Below, one piece after another: positions 2,495-8,057 of a stretch of 18,204 nucleotides of DNA. A program made the position numbers and the translations under genes. Within the stretch, counting starts at the first letter, position 1. The number at the start of each line of letters is the position of its first letter. The notes beneath the pieces are model-generated. The model did no database searches, was not told where the DNA came from, and saw only the letters and a program-made list of their open reading frames with translations. This stretch comes from a virus (lineage: Duplodnaviria; Heunggongvirae; Uroviricota; Caudoviricetes): the IMG/VR virus record IMGVR_UViG_2737471864_000007, positions 1 to 18,204 of that record. One strand, given 5' to 3'.

Positions 2495-3622
2495 TTAGAA
2501 GGTTACCGTTATCCAATTTTTACCTCGATCATCTCGATATTTAGCTGTCTGGTTTAGAGACTTGTGGCCAAGCAATTTCTGAGTATCAATACCTTGACCT
2601 CCGTAGAGACGTTCGGACAAGGAACGTTGTTCGTGGAATGTCGCTGGAGTACCATCACCCCAATCAATTCCTGCTAAATCTCTCGCTTTACTAAAATTCA
2701 TCGTCAATGTATTGGCTGTAACCTGCGCGCCACGTTCAGCCTGTGAAGTAGTACGAAAAAAATGTACAAGGTATGGGCTGACTACATAGTCACGACAGCG
2801 GGCTACTACATCGCGCAAACTCCAGTTGATCGCATTGAGACGCAGGGAAAGCGGGATGGCGATTTTGCTACCGGTTTTTTCCTGGATGACATGGAGATGA
2901 TCATCCCAAATATCGCTAAATTTCATACGCGAGATATCACCTAACCTCTGGCCGGTAACCAGTGCTAACAGCATGGCATTCCCCATATAACGATGACTGG
3001 CATCTGCGATATCAAAGATTTTTTGCCATTCTTCAAGACTTAACCGTTGTCGGGTAATTTTTCTTCTGGGCTGTTTGGTCGCTAATGCTGGATTATAGCC
3101 TGGAGGGACTTCCCCGTAGTGTTGTGCCTCCTTGAATACATCAATTAGAACGGAGCGGACTACTTGCGCCATCCTCGGTTGCCCAGCAGTGATATACTCG
3201 TCAAGCAATTGTGCGATATCCCTTACATCAACGGATGAAATTAACTTCATTCCTGCTCGCTCCCTGAGCAAGGACACTGGTTTAGCTTTCTGTTTATAGG
3301 TGTTGAGCTTTATATCACCACTTTTCAGTCTGTCATCCTGGATTGCTTGATAGCGATCTAACCAGGTTGATGTTGTGATTGCTTTTCCTTTGCTGGTTGC
3401 GATCCTGTCACTGATAGCCAGAATCTGCCGGGTTCTTTGCTCAGCCAGGCGTGTATTGGCCTCAGTGGCAATAGCAATGGCTTCCGCTTCGTTTGTGCCC
3501 AAAGAATGGAACTTCCCGGTCACTGGATGCTTATATCGCCAATAGACTTTATTTACTTTTCTGCTATAAAGCGGATACAAGTTCGGGACTGAAACATTAT
3601 TTTTACGTGGTCTGGCTGCCAT
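2495..3622 (-). CDS. int: Tyrosine site-specific integrase, lambda Int family
   Basis: 375 aa. N-terminal arm-binding-like region and C-terminal catalytic region ending HEQRSLSERLYGGQGIDTQKLLGHKSLNQTAKYRDDRG, closely resembling the lambda Int C-terminus including the catalytic Tyr context. Overlaps xis at its 5' end as in lambda. Confidence 0.9.
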   Translation of the reverse strand: MAARPRKNNVSVPNLYPLYSRKVNKVYWRYKHPVTGKFHSLGTNEAEAIAIATEANTRLAEQRTRQILAISDRIATSKGKAITTSTWLDRYQAIQDDRLKSGDIKLNTYKQKAKPVSLLRERAGMKLISSVDVRDIAQLLDEYITAGQPRMAQVVRSVLIDVFKEAQHYGEVPPGYNPALATKQPRRKITRQRLSLEEWQKIFDIADASHRYMGNAMLLALVTGQRLGDISRMKFSDIWDDHLHVIQEKTGSKIAIPLSLRLNAINWSLRDVVARCRDYVVSPYLVHFFRTTSQAERGAQVTANTLTMNFSKARDLAGIDWGDGTPATFHEQRSLSERLYGGQGIDTQKLLGHKSLNQTAKYRDDRGKNWITVTF

Positions 3623-3848
3623 TACTTAAAATCCTCTGTAGAATAATGGAATCACTTTTCTTGATGACAGGAGTAACTAACTCCCCAACTAACTCTGCGT
3701 CCTCACGCACTCGCCATAGTCGACCTTGTTTCATTGCCGGTGGACAAAATAAATTCTGCTTAGCATAACGACGCAATGTGGACACACTTGGAGGATTACT
3801 CCTAAATTTTTCCGCAGCCCATTCCTCAAGTGTCAGCATTTGAAGCAT
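3603..3848 (-). CDS. xis: Excisionase (Xis, lambda-like)
   Basis: LTLEEWAAEKF...VSTLRRYAKQNLFCPPAMKQGRLWRV parallels lambda Xis (LTLQEWNARQ...TVRRWVRE..IFPPPVKDGREY). Start taken at the ATG at 3848 (GAGGT about 10 nt upstream); alternative in-frame starts at 3863 and 3839. Overlaps int start. Confidence 0.75.
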   Translation of the reverse strand: MLQMLTLEEWAAEKFRSNPPSVSTLRRYAKQNLFCPPAMKQGRLWRVREDAELVGELVTPVIKKSDSIILQRILSNGSQTT

Positions 3849-5820: not shown

Positions 5821-5870
5821 TTTGCTGCTCCTCATCATATCGACCCTGCAAGGCCGATTAGTTTCTCCAC

Positions 5871-6074
5871 AAAACAGAGAAGAACACCTGCGGTGGCAGC
5901 CGCCCGGATGGATTGAGTTATGAGCCCGTCGTCCGGTGATGTTCTTCTCTGTTTTGTAAAAAGGACGGTACCAGCCGGAAGCAAGGGTACAAGCTGGTAC
6001 CGCCAGGACTACACACAGCATAAAGTTGTGGTGCCGGGTGCCTCCCGGTGCCTGGCGAAGGTTGCACACCAGGC
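5871..6074. other. GC-rich ORF-free segment with multiple perfect inverted repeats; candidate structured RNA or MITE-like element
   Basis: 16-bp perfect inverted repeat AAAACAGAGAAGAACA (5871-5886) / TGTTCTTCTCTGTTTT (5940-5955) around a 53-nt GC-rich spacer. 9-bp perfect stem GGTACCAGC (5967-5975) / GCTGGTACC (5993-6001). 6-bp stem GCCTGG (6050-6055) / CCAGGC (6069-6074). No convincing ORF in any frame. Confidence 0.3.
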
Positions 6075-6219
6075 GGGTGGGTATCCACAGAAGGTCGACT
6101 GTCAGCCTCAACCTTAACCCGCGTGCGCTGAGCCGCATTCACCACAACGCTAAGGATTCTCTCTGGTTGAAAATACTTAGCTGTTATGTGCCTGCTTTTA
6201 GCCACATCAGGCGAGGTGG

Positions 6220-6272
6220 ATCTGGTTATTCCCCAACAATAAGGATTCGGTTAATCTGGTTATCCCCAACAA
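6220..6272 (+). repeat. Two direct repeats ATCTGGTTAT(T)CCCCAACAA, 34 bp apart, just upstream of the ORF at 6289
   Basis: Copies at 6220-6239 and 6254-6272. The associated motif TAAGGATTC also occurs twice (6151-6159, 6240-6248), and CTGGTTGA at 6163-6170 is a partial third copy. Confidence 0.6.
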
Positions 6273-6288
6273 CGCAAAAGGAAAAGAA

Positions 6289-6723
6289 ATGTCCGGTAAT
6301 ATCTATACGCTGTACAAATCCCACTGTGAAAATGTTGGAAAGTATCGGGGCATTGAAATCAGTGGGGTAGTGTCATCAGTCGAAATAAGCAAAGTTGAAT
6401 CAAGAGCAACATTACTTACTCTTCTGGACCTTGTCTTACATGAGCACCGGAAGAAATTCGGCACTCCCTATAATCAGTTGAATGGGAAAAAGGCTCTGGT
6501 TCACCTTATTCTGATGAAGCATCACTGGATGCCAAAACAGATTAATGAGATGAAATTTGATGAACTTCTTCTTTCAATTCAGGATGAACTCACGCTTGAT
6601 AAAATAAGCGTAACCGCCCAGAAATTTTTAGATTATCGAGACTGGAGATCACAAATTCATCACTTTGATGATTTTGACGAAAATGAATGGGATCCTAATT
6701 TGTCTGCACAATATCTAAAGTAG
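6289..6723 (+). CDS. Hypothetical protein, 144 aa, acidic C-terminus; AT-rich gene oriented against the leftward early operon
   Basis: ATG at 6289 with AAGGA 7 nt upstream. Protein-like translation with no recognisable motif. 3' end overlaps the convergent small ORF 6695-6901 by 29 nt. Confidence 0.6.
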   Translation: MSGNIYTLYKSHCENVGKYRGIEISGVVSSVEISKVESRATLLTLLDLVLHEHRKKFGTPYNQLNGKKALVHLILMKHHWMPKQINEMKFDELLLSIQDELTLDKISVTAQKFLDYRDWRSQIHHFDDFDENEWDPNLSAQYLK

Positions 6724-6901
6724 CATCCTGTGATAAAACTGTGATTTCCTGATCCAGTTTTTTTAAGGAGCCTATTGTTTCCTGTCGATAAGACAGCACT
6801 TCACGAAGCTGGTTTATAGCTGCCAGCTTCTTTGTCATCCACTCGTAAATTTCCTCATCTGTGTAGCCAGGCGCGACGATTTTTGGTTCTGTTTTGTGCA
6901 T
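6695..6901 (-). CDS. Small hypothetical protein, 68 aa; first gene of the putative leftward (pL-like) operon
   Basis: ATG at 6901 preceded by a strong GAGGAGGTG Shine-Dalgarno 5-6 nt upstream; the track's longer form starts at a TTG. Helical-looking, not Arg-rich, so not an obvious N homolog. Confidence 0.55.
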   Translation of the reverse strand: MHKTEPKIVAPGYTDEEIYEWMTKKLAAINQLREVLSYRQETIGSLKKLDQEITVLSQDATLDIVQTN

Positions 6902-6947
6902 TTCACACCTCCTCAAGTTATCAGTTACTTGTTGATGGGGACCAGAT

Positions 6948-6959
6948 TGTTAAAGAGCT
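6948..6959 (-). promoter_or_regulatory. boxA-like element GCTCTTTAACAA; candidate antitermination (nut-like) site on the leftward transcript
   Basis: Minus-strand 12-mer matches the rrn/lambdoid boxA consensus TGCTCTTTAACAA at 12 of 13 positions. Lies between the OL-like block and the first leftward ORF. No convincing boxB hairpin identified. Confidence 0.4.
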
Positions 6960-6960
6960 A

Positions 6961-6984
6961 AGCGTCCTGTAGGGCGCTTTTTTG
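6961..6984 (+). terminator. Rho-independent terminator (plus strand)
   Basis: AGCGTCC-TGTA-GGGCGCT stem (7 bp, one G-U pair) followed by TTTTTT. The same hairpin on the minus strand has a C-A mismatch and no U-tract, so it is directional. Confidence 0.55.
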
Positions 6985-7058
6985 TTGCTAACGAATCATC
7001 CTGGACTTCATATGCCCCAGGCGGCTACTTCGTGGGCGTCCTGCCTGTTCGTTGTTTT

Positions 7059-7120
7059 AACACCTTTAAGTTGTAATTTAGTTGTGGCTTTGAATATTGT
7101 CAACAACTTTATGTGGTTTG
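7059..7120. promoter_or_regulatory. OL-like operator/promoter region
   Basis: Block AACACCTTTAAGTTGTAATTTAGTTGTGG (7059-7087) plus ACAACTTTATGT (7104-7115). Both recur in the cI-cro intergenic region; contains AAGTTGT/ACAACTT inverted half-sites. Confidence 0.5.
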
Positions 7121-7166: not shown

Positions 7167-8057
7167 ATGGAAGACGCGCTTTACGCTTTTAATTACACAC
7201 AGAACCGGGACAAGTTATTTGCTAACTTGATTAGCATCATTGATGGAATCATTGCAGATGGAGTTGTCCGTGAAGAGGAGGTTCTTTACTTAGATACATG
7301 GTTACTTGAAGCAAAGCAGATTATCAATAATGGAGTTATAAAAAGTCTATCAGCACGGGTGTCGGATATTCTTGCGGATGGAATAATCACATCAGAAGAA
7401 CGTGATGACCTTAAAAATAGCCTTCTCCAAATACAGAGGGAAATTCTTGATATCCCTGAAATTGATTTTTACTCCAAGGATGTAGATGTCCATTTACTTA
7501 ATGGACTATGTAAAGGATTAATTGCTGATCGGAACTTAACTCAAGAAGAAATAAGATATCTTAATTGGTGGCTTGAGCAAAATGGAGCTTTGAAGAACAA
7601 CTACCCAGGAAAAAAACTTTATGCACTTGTAAAGGAAATTCTTAAAGATGGGGTTATTACTGAAGATGAGAGTTTAACTCTACATAAGGCATTAGTAGAC
7701 TTCACAGGATGTGACTTGGAAAGTGGGGTGGTGGATGGTTTGGCGACCAGGCTGCCTATTGATGTAGGGGCTTCGATAGAGTTAGAGGGTAAAACCTATT
7801 GTCTTACAGGCACTTTTGTTGCAGGAAAGAGAGCCGTAGTTGAAAATTTGATTAAAAATGCTGGTGGGAACATCAGTAGTGGAATTACTCAAAAGTTGGA
7901 TTTTTTAGTAATTGGGACGCTTTCCTCCCGTGATTGGAAATTCTCAAGTCACGGAAGGAAGATCGAAAAAGCTATATCTTATAGGGATGATAATGGTGCA
8001 AAACTTAAAATTATTTCTGAAGAAATGCTTTTCGATGCATTACCAAGTTCGCGATGA
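7167..8057 (+). CDS. TerB-like helical-repeat protein with C-terminal BRCT domain; AT-rich cargo gene between OL and cI
   Basis: ATG at 7167 with AGGAGG 4 nt upstream; the track's form starts at a GTG at 7137. Four repeats of the pattern (A/K)DG.I(T/R).EE...L (IADGVVREEEVLYL, LADGIITSEERDDL, IADRNLTQEEIRYL, LKDGVITEDESLTL). C-terminal GKTYCLTGTF...GGNISSGITQKLDFLVIG...GRKIEKA...GAKLKIISEEMLFDAL resembles the LigA-type BRCT fold. Convergent 18-nt overlap with the cI 3' end. Confidence 0.75.
   Translation: MEDALYAFNYTQNRDKLFANLISIIDGIIADGVVREEEVLYLDTWLLEAKQIINNGVIKSLSARVSDILADGIITSEERDDLKNSLLQIQREILDIPEIDFYSKDVDVHLLNGLCKGLIADRNLTQEEIRYLNWWLEQNGALKNNYPGKKLYALVKEILKDGVITEDESLTLHKALVDFTGCDLESGVVDGLATRLPIDVGASIELEGKTYCLTGTFVAGKRAVVENLIKNAGGNISSGITQKLDFLVIGTLSSRDWKFSSHGRKIEKAISYRDDNGAKLKIISEEMLFDALPSSR

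Follow-up and report, generated by a model that had tools for sequence, protein, structure and literature searches.

Why should a prophage keep a pair of near-identical short repeats immediately upstream of a gene that runs against its own early operon? In the window analysed here (the whole stretch of 18,204 nt), two near-identical copies of ATCTGGTTAT(T)CCCCAACAA stand directly 5' of a rightward gene for a 144-aa protein (ORF144), which is enclosed by the PL operon, the leftward early operon, of an SfV/SfIV-like prophage. The layout given in the initial annotation was recovered, with small corrections; the repeats are spaced by 34 bp (6220-6239 and 6254-6272) and directly precede the ORF (6289-6723, plus strand; C-terminus ...HHFDDFDENEWDPNLSAQYLK). 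As described there, the ORF opposes the leftward genes (int, xis, yfdQ and yfdP, all on the minus strand), is richer in AT (GC 0.38-0.41, against 0.40-0.54 in the leftward genes and leader), overlaps a small convergent ORF by 29 nt (6695-6723; this 68-aa ORF runs 6901-6695), and is separated from the repeats by no terminator-like site on the plus strand. The association of TAAGGATTC with each copy stood for the second site (6240-6248), which lies between the repeats, and failed for the first (6151-6159), which lies 61 nt upstream of copy 1. Overlooked there was a third copy of the repeat (6929-6947), which is inverted and degenerate. The parts of the locus are as follows:

6176-6291, minus strand: putative sas-like antisense RNA region, homolog of P22 sas (covariance model R2)
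6186-6219, minus strand: conserved block (TGTGCCTGCTTTTAGCCACATCAGGCGAGGTGG in plus-strand reading), candidate H-type pseudoknot
6220-6239, plus strand: distal repeat (copy 1), ATCTGGTTATTCCCCAACAA, overlapping the putative -35 at 6226-6231
6226-6231, plus strand: putative -35, TTATTC, from alignment with the annotated P22 sieB promoter
6250-6255, plus strand: putative -10, GTTAAT, at the same position as GATAAA of P22
6254-6272, plus strand: proximal repeat (copy 2), ATCTGGTTATCCCCAACAA, its C-rich half being the putative 5' end of the cargo mRNA
6289-6723, plus strand: cargo gene, 144-aa ECs1072-family protein, with ribosome site AAGGA at 6277-6281
6695-6901, minus strand: 68-aa ORF (phrog_1744), first gene of the PL transcript, with a strong GAGGAGG ribosome site
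6929-6947, minus strand: third, inverted copy (TTGTTGATGGGGACCAGAT; ATCTGGTCCCCATCAACAA in minus-strand reading), directly 3' of boxA
6947-6958, minus strand: boxA, GCTCTTTAACAA, on the PL strand, 12/12 match to the rrn type
6960-6985, plus strand: intrinsic terminator, AAGCGTCCTGTAGGGCGCTT followed by TTTTTT, for rightward (cargo) transcription
7075-7103, minus strand: PL-like promoter, TTGACA, 17 nt, TAAATT, with operator-like ACAACTTTATGT-type sites

The two direct copies differ solely by one extra T, and their start-to-start distance is 34 nt. By our own estimate, a 19-mer pair of this kind (one indel, at most 60 nt apart, within 1 kb) would be expected by chance about 1e-5 times. The retention of the pair across dozens of phage contigs is strong evidence for it; the shuffle test is weak evidence, 16% of shuffles holding at least one exact 9-mer that recurs within 60 nt. 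The 9-mer TAAGGATTC stays within chance expectation (4 matches with at most one mismatch, against 4.6 expected), and CsrA/GGA sites were rejected here, as the 9-mer is not above chance and is conserved only in part. DnaA boxes were also rejected: TTATCCCCA is one mismatch off TTATCCACA, but the other repeat families have unrelated words. The repeats were also rejected as cI operators: the operator-like ACAACTTTATGT-type sites near PL and between cI and cro bear no relation to them, and the repeats recur beside other immunity regions. Measured against iterons, taken as at least three direct repeats of 17-22 bp at an origin that are bound by a linked Rep protein, the locus has two direct copies only, with neither a rep gene nor an origin nearby. 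In this phage group, the true origin-type repeats are found within the O gene region.

Sequence comparison identifies 6176-6291 as homologous to the sieB promoter region of lambda and P22, with the repeats as parts of that module and not iterons. The sieB/esc/sas system of P22 was reportedly described by Ranade and Poteete in 1993, and it is for P22 only that the sieB promoter, its start site, the existence of sas and a translational switch are said to have been shown by others. In the P22 record (sieB promoter 29690-29720, RNA start 29727, CDS 29758), the distal repeat lies over the -35, and the proximal ACCCCTACAG begins at the mapped start of the sieB RNA. Lambda and P22 have in common the block TGTGCCTG(T)CTTTTAACCAC(A/G)TCAGGC(TC/GA)GGTGG and, after it, a pair of ACCCCTACAG copies at a spacing of exactly 34 nt; the same spacing is found in a Hafnia phage. 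A covariance model (R2) built from 19 sequences of other repeat families, with the P22 sas region included and the family of the window excluded, matched the window once, over its full length at 6291-6176 on the minus strand (77.8 bits, E 2.3e-16); it also matched the relatives L002, L004 and SfV. Read in that direction, the region holds the complement of the start codon and Shine-Dalgarno sequence, the reverse complements of the proximal repeat and of the -10, the distal-repeat hairpin and the conserved block. Both copies lie inside the minus-strand homolog of P22 sas, and the earlier alternative that the repeats belong to an RNA had pointed in the right direction. P22 sas has been re-detected by small-RNA sequencing, and its published 127-nt sequence (PMC13397905) is the minus strand of exactly the homologous P22 segment. 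At gathering thresholds Rfam gave no match in the window and none in the P22 region either, and hence sas is not an Rfam family.

The locus thus resembles that of P22 in its block, in the repeats 34 nt apart that flank the -10, in the ribosome site and start codon, and in a rightward cargo embedded in opposite orientation inside the PL operon. It differs from it in several respects. The cargo is an ECs1072-family protein and not SieB (it lacks PF14163), and the internal second start (esc) of the P22 sas target has no evident counterpart in ORF144; the repeat word is CCCCAACAA instead of CCCCTACAG; no N-type gene lies between PL and the cargo; the cassette is adjoined by a boxA, an inverted third copy and a rightward terminator; and P22 sas was shown experimentally, whereas the window's family is known from sequence. 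In lambda, sieB (git) occupies the same slot as a plus-strand gene convergent with N, the first PL gene, and has the block and the 34-nt spacing, but N and nutL lie upstream and there is no inverted copy. We know of no antisense RNA described at lambda sieB. The whole module is lost from CPS-53 of E. coli K-12, and K-12 transcript maps are therefore uninformative. Judged by this homology, a sieB/sas-type module, already known from P22, would here drive an uncharacterised cargo in place of sieB and probably also switch it off.

By alignment with P22, rightward cargo transcription would start at about 6262-6264. The relatives carry TATAAT, GATAAT or GATAAA at the -10 position; in the window both hexamers are poor, and a consensus promoter scan detected neither GTTAAT, owing to T for A at the second position of the hexamer, nor TTATTC.

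Lambda, P22, the Hafnia phage, SfV-like phages and over 100 IMG/VR sequences carry the block in near-identical form. Its minus strand could form a pseudoknot from CCAC:GUGG and GCCUG:CAGGC, the pairs of which hold in 99.5% of cells, with two minus-strand U.G pairs and two double compensatory changes; both of the latter come from a single divergent sequence (L155), the covariation being thin because the block hardly varies. After the block, a direct repeat of at least 10/12 identity at 32-36 nt (mostly 33-34) is present in 59 of 108 distinct sequences. The repeat words fall into at least six families (CCCCAACAAC, ACCCCTACAG, TTCCACAGTCAA, CCCCCACAA, CCCCAATGCAA and CCCCAACGA); within each, both copies change in step, the 33-34 nt spacing is kept, and a -10-like hexamer (GTTAAT, TATAAT, GATAAA or similar) stands between the copies. 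Read on the minus strand, the distal repeat usually supplies the 5' arm and the G loop of a hairpin. Folded sequence by sequence, this hairpin is more stable on the minus than on the plus strand in 29 of 35 distinct sequences (means -8.9 and -6.1 kcal/mol, Wilcoxon p 2e-5), although the compared sequences are related, so that counts and p-values overstate their independence. The hairpin of the window itself is weak (-5.2 on the minus and -4.6 kcal/mol on the plus strand), and when the region is folded as a single sequence, neither strand is unusually stable (z +1.4 and +2.2). From the mixed families, RNAalifold yielded no consensus with the hairpins, because their register shifts between families.

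These observations bear on the possibility that the repeats are DNA operators, at which a dimeric phage or host regulator bound to the -35, the +1 and the inverted copy would repress or activate the cargo promoter, possibly by looping. The copies do lie exactly over the putative -35 and +1, a palindromic core, TGGATATCCA, is present in the proximal and inverted copies of relatives, and the iteron-like regulator sites proposed in the initial annotation are an idea of the same type. However, the word varies by phage family, both copies together, and no regulator gene in the slot co-varies with it; one and the same word is found alongside different immunity regions (the operators of the window are unlike those of SfV and PhiR29_1); the variant ATCTGGATGACT in L167 and L202 is not palindromic; and where paired positions differ, minus-strand G.U is preferred over C.A, a bias that favours a minus-strand RNA and that a DNA site does not need. 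Operators thus appear quite unlikely, and the iteron-like reading did not hold up, the repeats flanking the -10 of a sieB-type promoter.

What the promoter serves differs from phage to phage. ORF144 matches NCBIfam NF033230 (ECs1072 family phage-associated protein; residues 4-144) at 157.8 bits, with a cut-off of 70. The family comprises 65 clusters at 50% identity, mostly of 143-157 aa. The structure is confidently modelled as all-alpha, with no known fold relative. NF033230, a hypothetical family, was the only one matched. The view of ORF144 as an uncharacterised cargo (moron) gene set against the PL operon is upheld, and neither outcome named as refuting in the initial annotation was seen: the protein has no match to a well-known early-protein family, and the repeat does recur upstream of homologs, at 72% and 56% identity. 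It is not specific to ORF144, for at least five unrelated cargos occupy this slot behind it; behind the block, at least 35 unrelated plus-strand proteins are encoded, including SieB (PF14163) in P22, lambda and L265. Morons, said by Hendrix and colleagues to be promoter-gene-terminator units inserted into phage operons, resemble the cassette in their own promoter and terminator, lower GC, opposite orientation and variable content. The cassette differs on its promoter side, where many unrelated cargos share a conserved and structured regulatory module of two strands.

Such diversity could also mean that the repeats, with the inverted copy, mark the ends of the cassette as conserved flanks or as recombinase sites for cargo swapping, with no role in expression. 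In agreement with this, homology between phages breaks at the repeats (at 6222 with SfV and at 6273 with PhiR29_1), at least five unrelated cargos have the same elements to their left and right, and in the distant phage L005 the motif lies on both flanks of an ECs1072 homolog. Yet the slot has no linked recombinase, the direct repeats of lambda and P22 come with no inverted copy, and no inverted or empty cassette was noticed in an unsystematic look among the loci examined. Moreover, boundaries would leave unexplained both the fixed 33-34 nt spacing around the -10 and the place of the P22 repeats in a detected RNA (PMC13397905). We regard this explanation as very unlikely; homologous recombination in the conserved flanks is likely a by-product of the module and not a rival function.

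On the PL side, the 68-aa ORF is kept beside the 72%-identical ORF144 homolog in E. albertii and is missing from the cassettes with other cargos. Some 110 nt beyond the PL-like promoter in the downstream direction, 6958-6947 on the minus strand matches the rrn-type boxA at 12/12 positions, as a putative NusB/NusE site; the annotated nutL of P22 has a boxA with CGCTCTTTAAC. The motif and its adjoining hairpin recur in many phage contigs, and the rightward terminator is kept beside boxA in relatives, with changes in the stem; the SfV class is without repeats and without this terminator. HK022 put antiterminator RNA was rejected as a relative, BLAST of 7075-6985 (minus strand) against HK022 24.5-36 kb having found no similarity to putL at the sequence level.

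For the third copy, a duplex with the reverse complement of the repeat region is predicted at -25.3 kcal/mol (shuffles -13.5). Among 38 loci, 33 show such pairing between the antisense repeat region and the 35 nt that follow boxA, with energies of -24 to -35 kcal/mol (shuffles about -13). No such long-range pairing was found in the same run for the Hafnia phage, L213 and L262, which belong to other repeat-word families, and downstream of sieB in lambda and P22 there is no inverted copy of their own repeat word. Of 35 loci, which again are related, 32 have the stronger duplex on the minus strand (p 6.5e-7), whereas that of the window is slightly better on the plus strand (-26.8 vs -25.3 kcal/mol).

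In the third alternative, the functional RNA is the rightward cargo mRNA: its C/A-rich 5' end would act as a translational enhancer or as a GcvB target or decoy, and the inverted copy in its 3' UTR would pair with the 5' end, so that the mRNA is stabilised or silenced. The marginally stronger plus-strand duplex of the window agrees with it, as does the likeness of CCCCAACAAC to CACAACA, the C/A-rich consensus of GcvB targets that the prophage anti-sRNA AgvB mimics (PMC4104026). Against it, the minus-strand duplex is favoured in those 32 of 35 loci, the words of other families (CCCCTACAG and TTCCACAGTCAA) are not C/A-rich and GcvB-like, and the similarity between the proximal and inverted copies takes in ATCTGGATAT, which by P22 homology lies 5' of the rightward start and is therefore not in the cargo mRNA. 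Little probability attaches, in our view, to this explanation. AgvB and AsxR anti-sRNAs and Pas sRNAs were rejected as candidates for the repeats themselves, since they are located in the late region. A type III toxin-antitoxin pair, with a repeat RNA as antitoxin and ORF144 as toxin, is suggested by direct repeats of about 34-nt period upstream of a small ORF but was already judged poorly backed in the initial annotation and is now effectively refuted and extremely improbable, given that the copies are only two and not head to tail, that no terminator separates them from the ORF, that ORF144 has no ToxN/AbiQ-like or other PADLOC match, and that the same repeats precede many unrelated genes.

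Hence, we consider it reasonably probable that the repeats are parts of a two-strand expression module made up of a cargo promoter and a PL-derived, sas-like antisense RNA. On the plus strand, a weak sigma-70 promoter (TTATTC, GTTAAT) would express the cargo in the lysogen and, since the proximal repeat spans the start site, its C-rich CCCCAACAA would form the 5' end of the cargo mRNA; the terminator at 6960-6985 would end this transcript ahead of PL. When PL fires, on induction or from a superinfecting relative, the leftward transcript would run antisense through the cargo gene and then yield a sas-like RNA (6291 to 6176) covering the ribosome site and start codon of the cargo, two UUGUUGGGGA copies and, at its end, the block. 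By analogy with P22 sas, this RNA would pair with the cargo mRNA and turn its translation off or re-program it, and we propose that the phage thereby escapes its own cargo protein. The upstream copy, held in a hairpin with a G-rich loop, could kiss the C-rich mRNA 5' end as a second, structured recognition site; the constant joint change of the two copies would then have an explanation.

In IS10 RNA-OUT/RNA-IN and similar systems, the loop of an antisense hairpin makes its first pairs at the very 5' end of the mRNA that it targets. The likeness is a mechanistic analogy with no sequence relationship; unlike in IS10, the hairpin here is encoded 5' of the mRNA start, so that a direct repeat would have to keep the complementarity. 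In the N-less family, the third copy 3' of boxA would form a duplex of 17-25 bp with the antisense repeat region, which lies about 0.7 kb further downstream in the same PL transcript, and this would loop out the antisense cargo segment. The leaders of rrn operons likewise carry boxA, and long-range stems flanking 16S rRNA are cut by RNase III. The cassette is similar to them in its boxA (GCTCTTTAACAA), in the hairpin before it and in the segment that follows, complementary to one hundreds of nucleotides downstream; it differs in that it belongs to the PL operon of a phage and that its loop contains an antisense cargo gene (0.45-0.8 kb), and roles of Nus factors and RNase III here are putative.

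A wider reading, tentative and rather unlikely as a whole, is that the sieB/sas region is a general lambdoid cargo dock with PL antisense shut-off and an rrn-like device, and that ECs1072 is a SieB-like exclusion factor. Any prophage-expressed gene placed there would be silenced automatically by the PL-derived antisense RNA, as the co-evolving direct repeat would keep the G-loop hairpin complementary to the mRNA 5' end. Phages without N may have gained the rrn-like device, a boxA followed by a mimic of the mRNA 5' end, which would pair across 0.45-0.8 kb of antisense cargo RNA and lead to processing (e.g., by RNase III) or to protection from Rho. In that case, the exclusion factor formed by the ECs1072 protein would be new, and the PL-encoded 68-aa ORF would possibly be its antidote.

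An anonymous repeat is in this way turned into a testable regulatory module, and the P22 sas observation of 1993, made in a single phage, is now tied to a module in well over a hundred phage contigs from hosts such as Escherichia, Shigella, Salmonella, Klebsiella, Hafnia and Cronobacter, among others. The block could serve in the search for prophage cargos whose silencing a phage may require while it grows; should this be the case, these cargos, the widespread ECs1072 family among them, would be good candidates for exclusion or abortive infection. The co-varying repeat and the boxA-side duplex are simple and mutable, and lend themselves to direct tests of antisense target finding and of how N-less lambdoid phages transcribe across a long untranslated antisense segment. 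Next to the module, 5955-6178 on the minus strand matches STnc100 (RF02076) over the full model length at 42.4 bits (E 1.6e-7; gathering threshold 47), and four relatives match the same model at 38-46 bits, under the same threshold.

The window is a lambdoid prophage of the SfV/SfIV/CPS-53-like type, in which a conserved non-coding stretch is followed by the repeats, ORF144, ORF68, a rightward terminator and a PL-like promoter, with a BRCT-domain ORF (+), cI (-) and cro (+) lying beyond. Given this gene order, ORF144 is an oppositely oriented gene within the PL operon, whose first gene is ORF68.

Left part of the window, all leftward: gtr-like genes, then int, xis, yfdT/S/R-like genes, yfdQ and yfdP
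5830-6219: conserved non-coding stretch, about 390 nt
6220-6239 (+): repeat copy 1 (distal), ATCTGGTTATTCCCCAACAA
6254-6272 (+): repeat copy 2 (proximal), ATCTGGTTATCCCCAACAA
6289-6723 (+): ORF144, 144 aa, acidic tail, GC 0.38-0.41
6901-6695 (-): ORF68, 68 aa, strong ribosome site, convergent with ORF144
6960-6985 (+): rightward terminator
7103-7075 (-): PL-like promoter with operators
7167-8057 (+): BRCT ORF, 296 aa, AT-rich; C-terminal BRCT domain (PF00533, E 1e-6), phrog_3989, weak PADLOC match to PDC-S48

Re-examination bore out how the initial annotation had described the repeats (34 nt apart start to start and differing solely by one T), ORF144, its 29-nt convergent overlap with ORF68, and the absence of a terminator, none of which was found between the repeats and ORF144. 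The annotation had also tied TAAGGATTC to each repeat; this stands for the occurrence at 6240, between the copies, but not for that at 6151, and the 9-mer by itself is no more frequent than expected by chance. A third copy, inverted and degenerate, had been overlooked at 6929-6947; the window's family has this copy, and neither lambda nor P22 carries it downstream of sieB. A possible further degenerate unit at 6137-6167 (CACCACAACGC-TAAGGATTC-TCTCTGGTT, compared with CCCCAACAA-TAAGGATTC-GGTTAATCTGGTT), within an STnc100-like region, hints at the trace of an old duplication.

The left side of the window is homologous to the sequence preceding sieB in lambda and P22. Both phages carry the conserved block TGTGCCTGTCTTTTAACCAC(A/G)TCAGGCTCGGTGG (6186-6219 in the window), followed by two copies of ACCCCTACAG exactly 34 nt apart. 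The P22 record places the sieB promoter at 29690-29720 (-35 TGTACC, -10 GATAAA), the mapped RNA start at 29727 and the CDS from 29758; the distal copy overlaps the -35 element, and the mapped start is the beginning of the proximal copy. Moreover, the P22 sas RNA, a 127-nt minus-strand species listed in a 2026 small-RNA sequencing study (PMC13397905), is the reverse complement of exactly this segment: it starts barely within the sieB start codon and extends across both repeats as far as the block end. Reviews describe it as redirecting translation from SieB to Esc, an internal product. When 19 sequences from other repeat families (P22 among them) were used to build a covariance model, the model matched the window at 6291-6176 (-) over the full model length (77.8 bits, E 2.3e-16), gave no other match there, and also matched relatives, SfV included. 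Judged by sequence and position, the window's module is of the P22/lambda sieB-promoter/sas kind. Unlike those of P22 and lambda, its cargo is not SieB, its repeat word is different, it is without an N-type gene, and it has an added inverted copy, boxA and terminator. We found no description of the module's generality, the repeat co-variation or the boxA-adjacent duplex in the literature searched, the 1993 primary papers lying outside its scope.

Among 108 distinct sequences following the block, 59 contain a direct repeat (at least 10/12) at a spacing of 32-36 nt, mostly 33-34, belonging to at least six word families (CCCCAACAAC, ACCCCTACAG, TTCCACAGTCAA, CCCCCACAA, CCCCAATGCAA and CCCCAACGA). 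Both copies change together across these families, and between them lie -10-like hexamers (GTTAAT, TATAAT, GATAAA, GATATA and similar). Operator sites for a regulator, which the initial annotation had offered as one option in the form of iteron-like sites, are the likeliest alternative reading of the repeats, though we consider them unlikely. A second locus class, comprising SfV and many others, has the block, TATNCT, a single hairpin with covarying stems, a ribosome site and a start codon, and is without repeats.

Two families of unknown function include ORF144, NCBIfam NF033230 ('ECs1072 family phage-associated protein') and phrog_5286; the ECs1072 family comprises 65 clusters at 50% identity, mostly stand-alone and of 143-157 aa, with invariant H72 and W134. 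In other phages the position after the block is taken by at least 35 unrelated proteins, and the cargo is SieB (PF14163) in P22, lambda and contig L265. ORF68 (phrog_1744) occurs together with ORF144 only in SfIV-type and E. albertii cassettes. Across 80 IMG/VR contigs carrying yfdP, rightward genes differ from phage to phage in a slot bounded by the conserved leader on the left and the anchor AACGAATCATCCTGGAC (6990 onward) on the right. At least five unrelated cargos retain three features: both repeats, the rightward terminator, and an inverted copy with TGTTAAAGAGC after it (classes including the window's own, PhiR29_1, L041, L079 and L037); the SfV class has none of these features. The repeats are also conserved upstream of ORF144 homologs, the point on which the initial annotation had let its reading depend: both are nearly unchanged in E. 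albertii (72% identity), and the left and right motifs are still recognisable around a 56% homolog in a quite different phage. Since unrelated cargos also share these edges, the repeats are a property of the slot and not of the ORF144 gene. That they are pure cassette boundaries at such a slot seems to us improbable, given a somewhat lower rank than operators.

Contig L145 has two block copies about 790 nt apart (2916-3043 and 3703-3830), one with repeats and the other belonging to the single-hairpin class, so that tandem arrays of such docks are possible. In E. coli K-12 CPS-53 (L206, 7248-7604) module, cargo and immunity region are all deleted, and origin-type repeats from a replication gene fragment now lie directly upstream of yfdP. 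An unannotated ORF of ST64B (L312, 2501-2776 (+)), antisense and flanked by sb50 and the holin gene sb51, is distantly ECs1072-like, with 32% identity across the C-terminal two thirds. PMC7067206 describes an independently transcribed moron, STMMW_20121, with which this ORF might be identical.

On the minus strand the block can form a predicted H-type pseudoknot (CCAC:GUGG and GCCUG:CAGGC, with an A-rich third loop). Its stems pair in 99.5% of cells. Compensatory changes occur in both stems of L155, the only divergent sequence, and in two sequences a minus-strand U.G corresponds to what would be C.A on the plus strand; because the block varies so little, these pairings are weak evidence. The distal repeat folds in prediction into a minus-strand hairpin with a GGGG loop, e.g., UCCUUGUUGUU-GGGG-AAUAACGGGGA, the minus strand being favoured in 29 of 35 distinct sequences when each was folded separately (means -8.9 vs -6.1 kcal/mol, p 2e-5; the sequences are related and the counts not independent). 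The window's own hairpin is weak (-5.2 kcal/mol), and single-sequence folding of its region was unremarkable.

A motif scan found GCTCTTTAACAATCTGG, the reverse complement of the right-hand motif, to be widespread among phage contigs. GCTCTTTAACAA is the classical boxA of rrn/P22 type, and CGCTCTTTAAC is labelled nutL boxA in the P22 record. The 35 nt after boxA on the PL strand can pair with the antisense repeat region, which follows 0.45-0.8 kb further along that transcript. In 33 of 38 loci the predicted duplexes reach -24 to -35 kcal/mol, shuffled sequences giving about -13; the loci are related, so that counts are not independent. Loci of the other word families scored alongside them (Hafnia phage, L213, L262) gave no such pairing. 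The L167/L202 lineage has ATCTGGATGACT in both pairing partners. The third-copy similarity takes in ATCTGGATAT, and since this lies, by P22 homology, upstream of the rightward start, the pairing is more consistent with the PL transcript than with the cargo mRNA. Of 35 loci, again related and not independent, 32 have the stabler duplex on the minus strand (p 6.5e-7), the window being an exception (-25.3 vs -26.8). That the repeats act within the rightward mRNA, for instance in GcvB targeting or by 5'-3' pairing, is about as improbable as pure boundaries, and a type III toxin-antitoxin system we regard as scarcely credible.

Homology, anatomy and comparative patterns are observed in the window; its transcripts and their effects we infer from P22. 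We lean toward a sieB/sas-type expression module as a whole, and are less sure of its details. In the lysogen, a weak sieB-type promoter (-10 at 6250-6255, start near 6262) would express ORF144, and the terminator at 6960-6985 would protect PL from cargo transcription. When PL fires, the leftward transcript would run antisense through the cargo and yield a sas-like RNA masking the cargo's ribosome site and start codon. Displayed in the G-loop hairpin, the upstream copy would offer a structured site for the C-rich mRNA 5' end, which would account for the co-variation of the copies. The boxA-adjacent copy would close the long-range duplex, which may aid processing or help RNA polymerase to cross the untranslated antisense segment.

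The segment that follows the sas-like region on the PL strand, 5955-6178 (-), is a full-length match to Rfam STnc100 slightly below the threshold (RF02076; 42.4 bits, E 1.6e-7, threshold 47; 38-46 bits in four relatives), ending at a terminator-like hairpin (6002-5966) and a U run. Between it and the yfdP start lies an inverted repeat (5869-5957; 25-nt arms, 88% complementary, 39 nt apart), in a non-coding stretch annotated in some records as a YfdP N-terminal extension or separate ORF (SfIV_34, SfIV_35). Many N-less lambdoid phages, among them SfV, SfII, ST64B, mEp237, SEN34, ZF40 and Yersinia YeP2, share a conserved stretch of about 65 nt that immediately follows the PL-like promoter (6990-7057, -); the stretch looks highly structured, could be a cis-acting antiterminator, and has no similarity to HK022 by BLAST. 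Neither isrK nor C4 antisense RNA reached the Rfam gathering threshold in the window; both are strong matches (64 and 82 bits) in the rightward early region of relatives (SfV, L003, 5978-6166 (+); contig L004, 3464-3652 (+)). The BRCT ORF, which SfIV does not have, is convergent with cI and is located in the interval from PL/OL to cI; because its position is rex-like, it may be a defence candidate.
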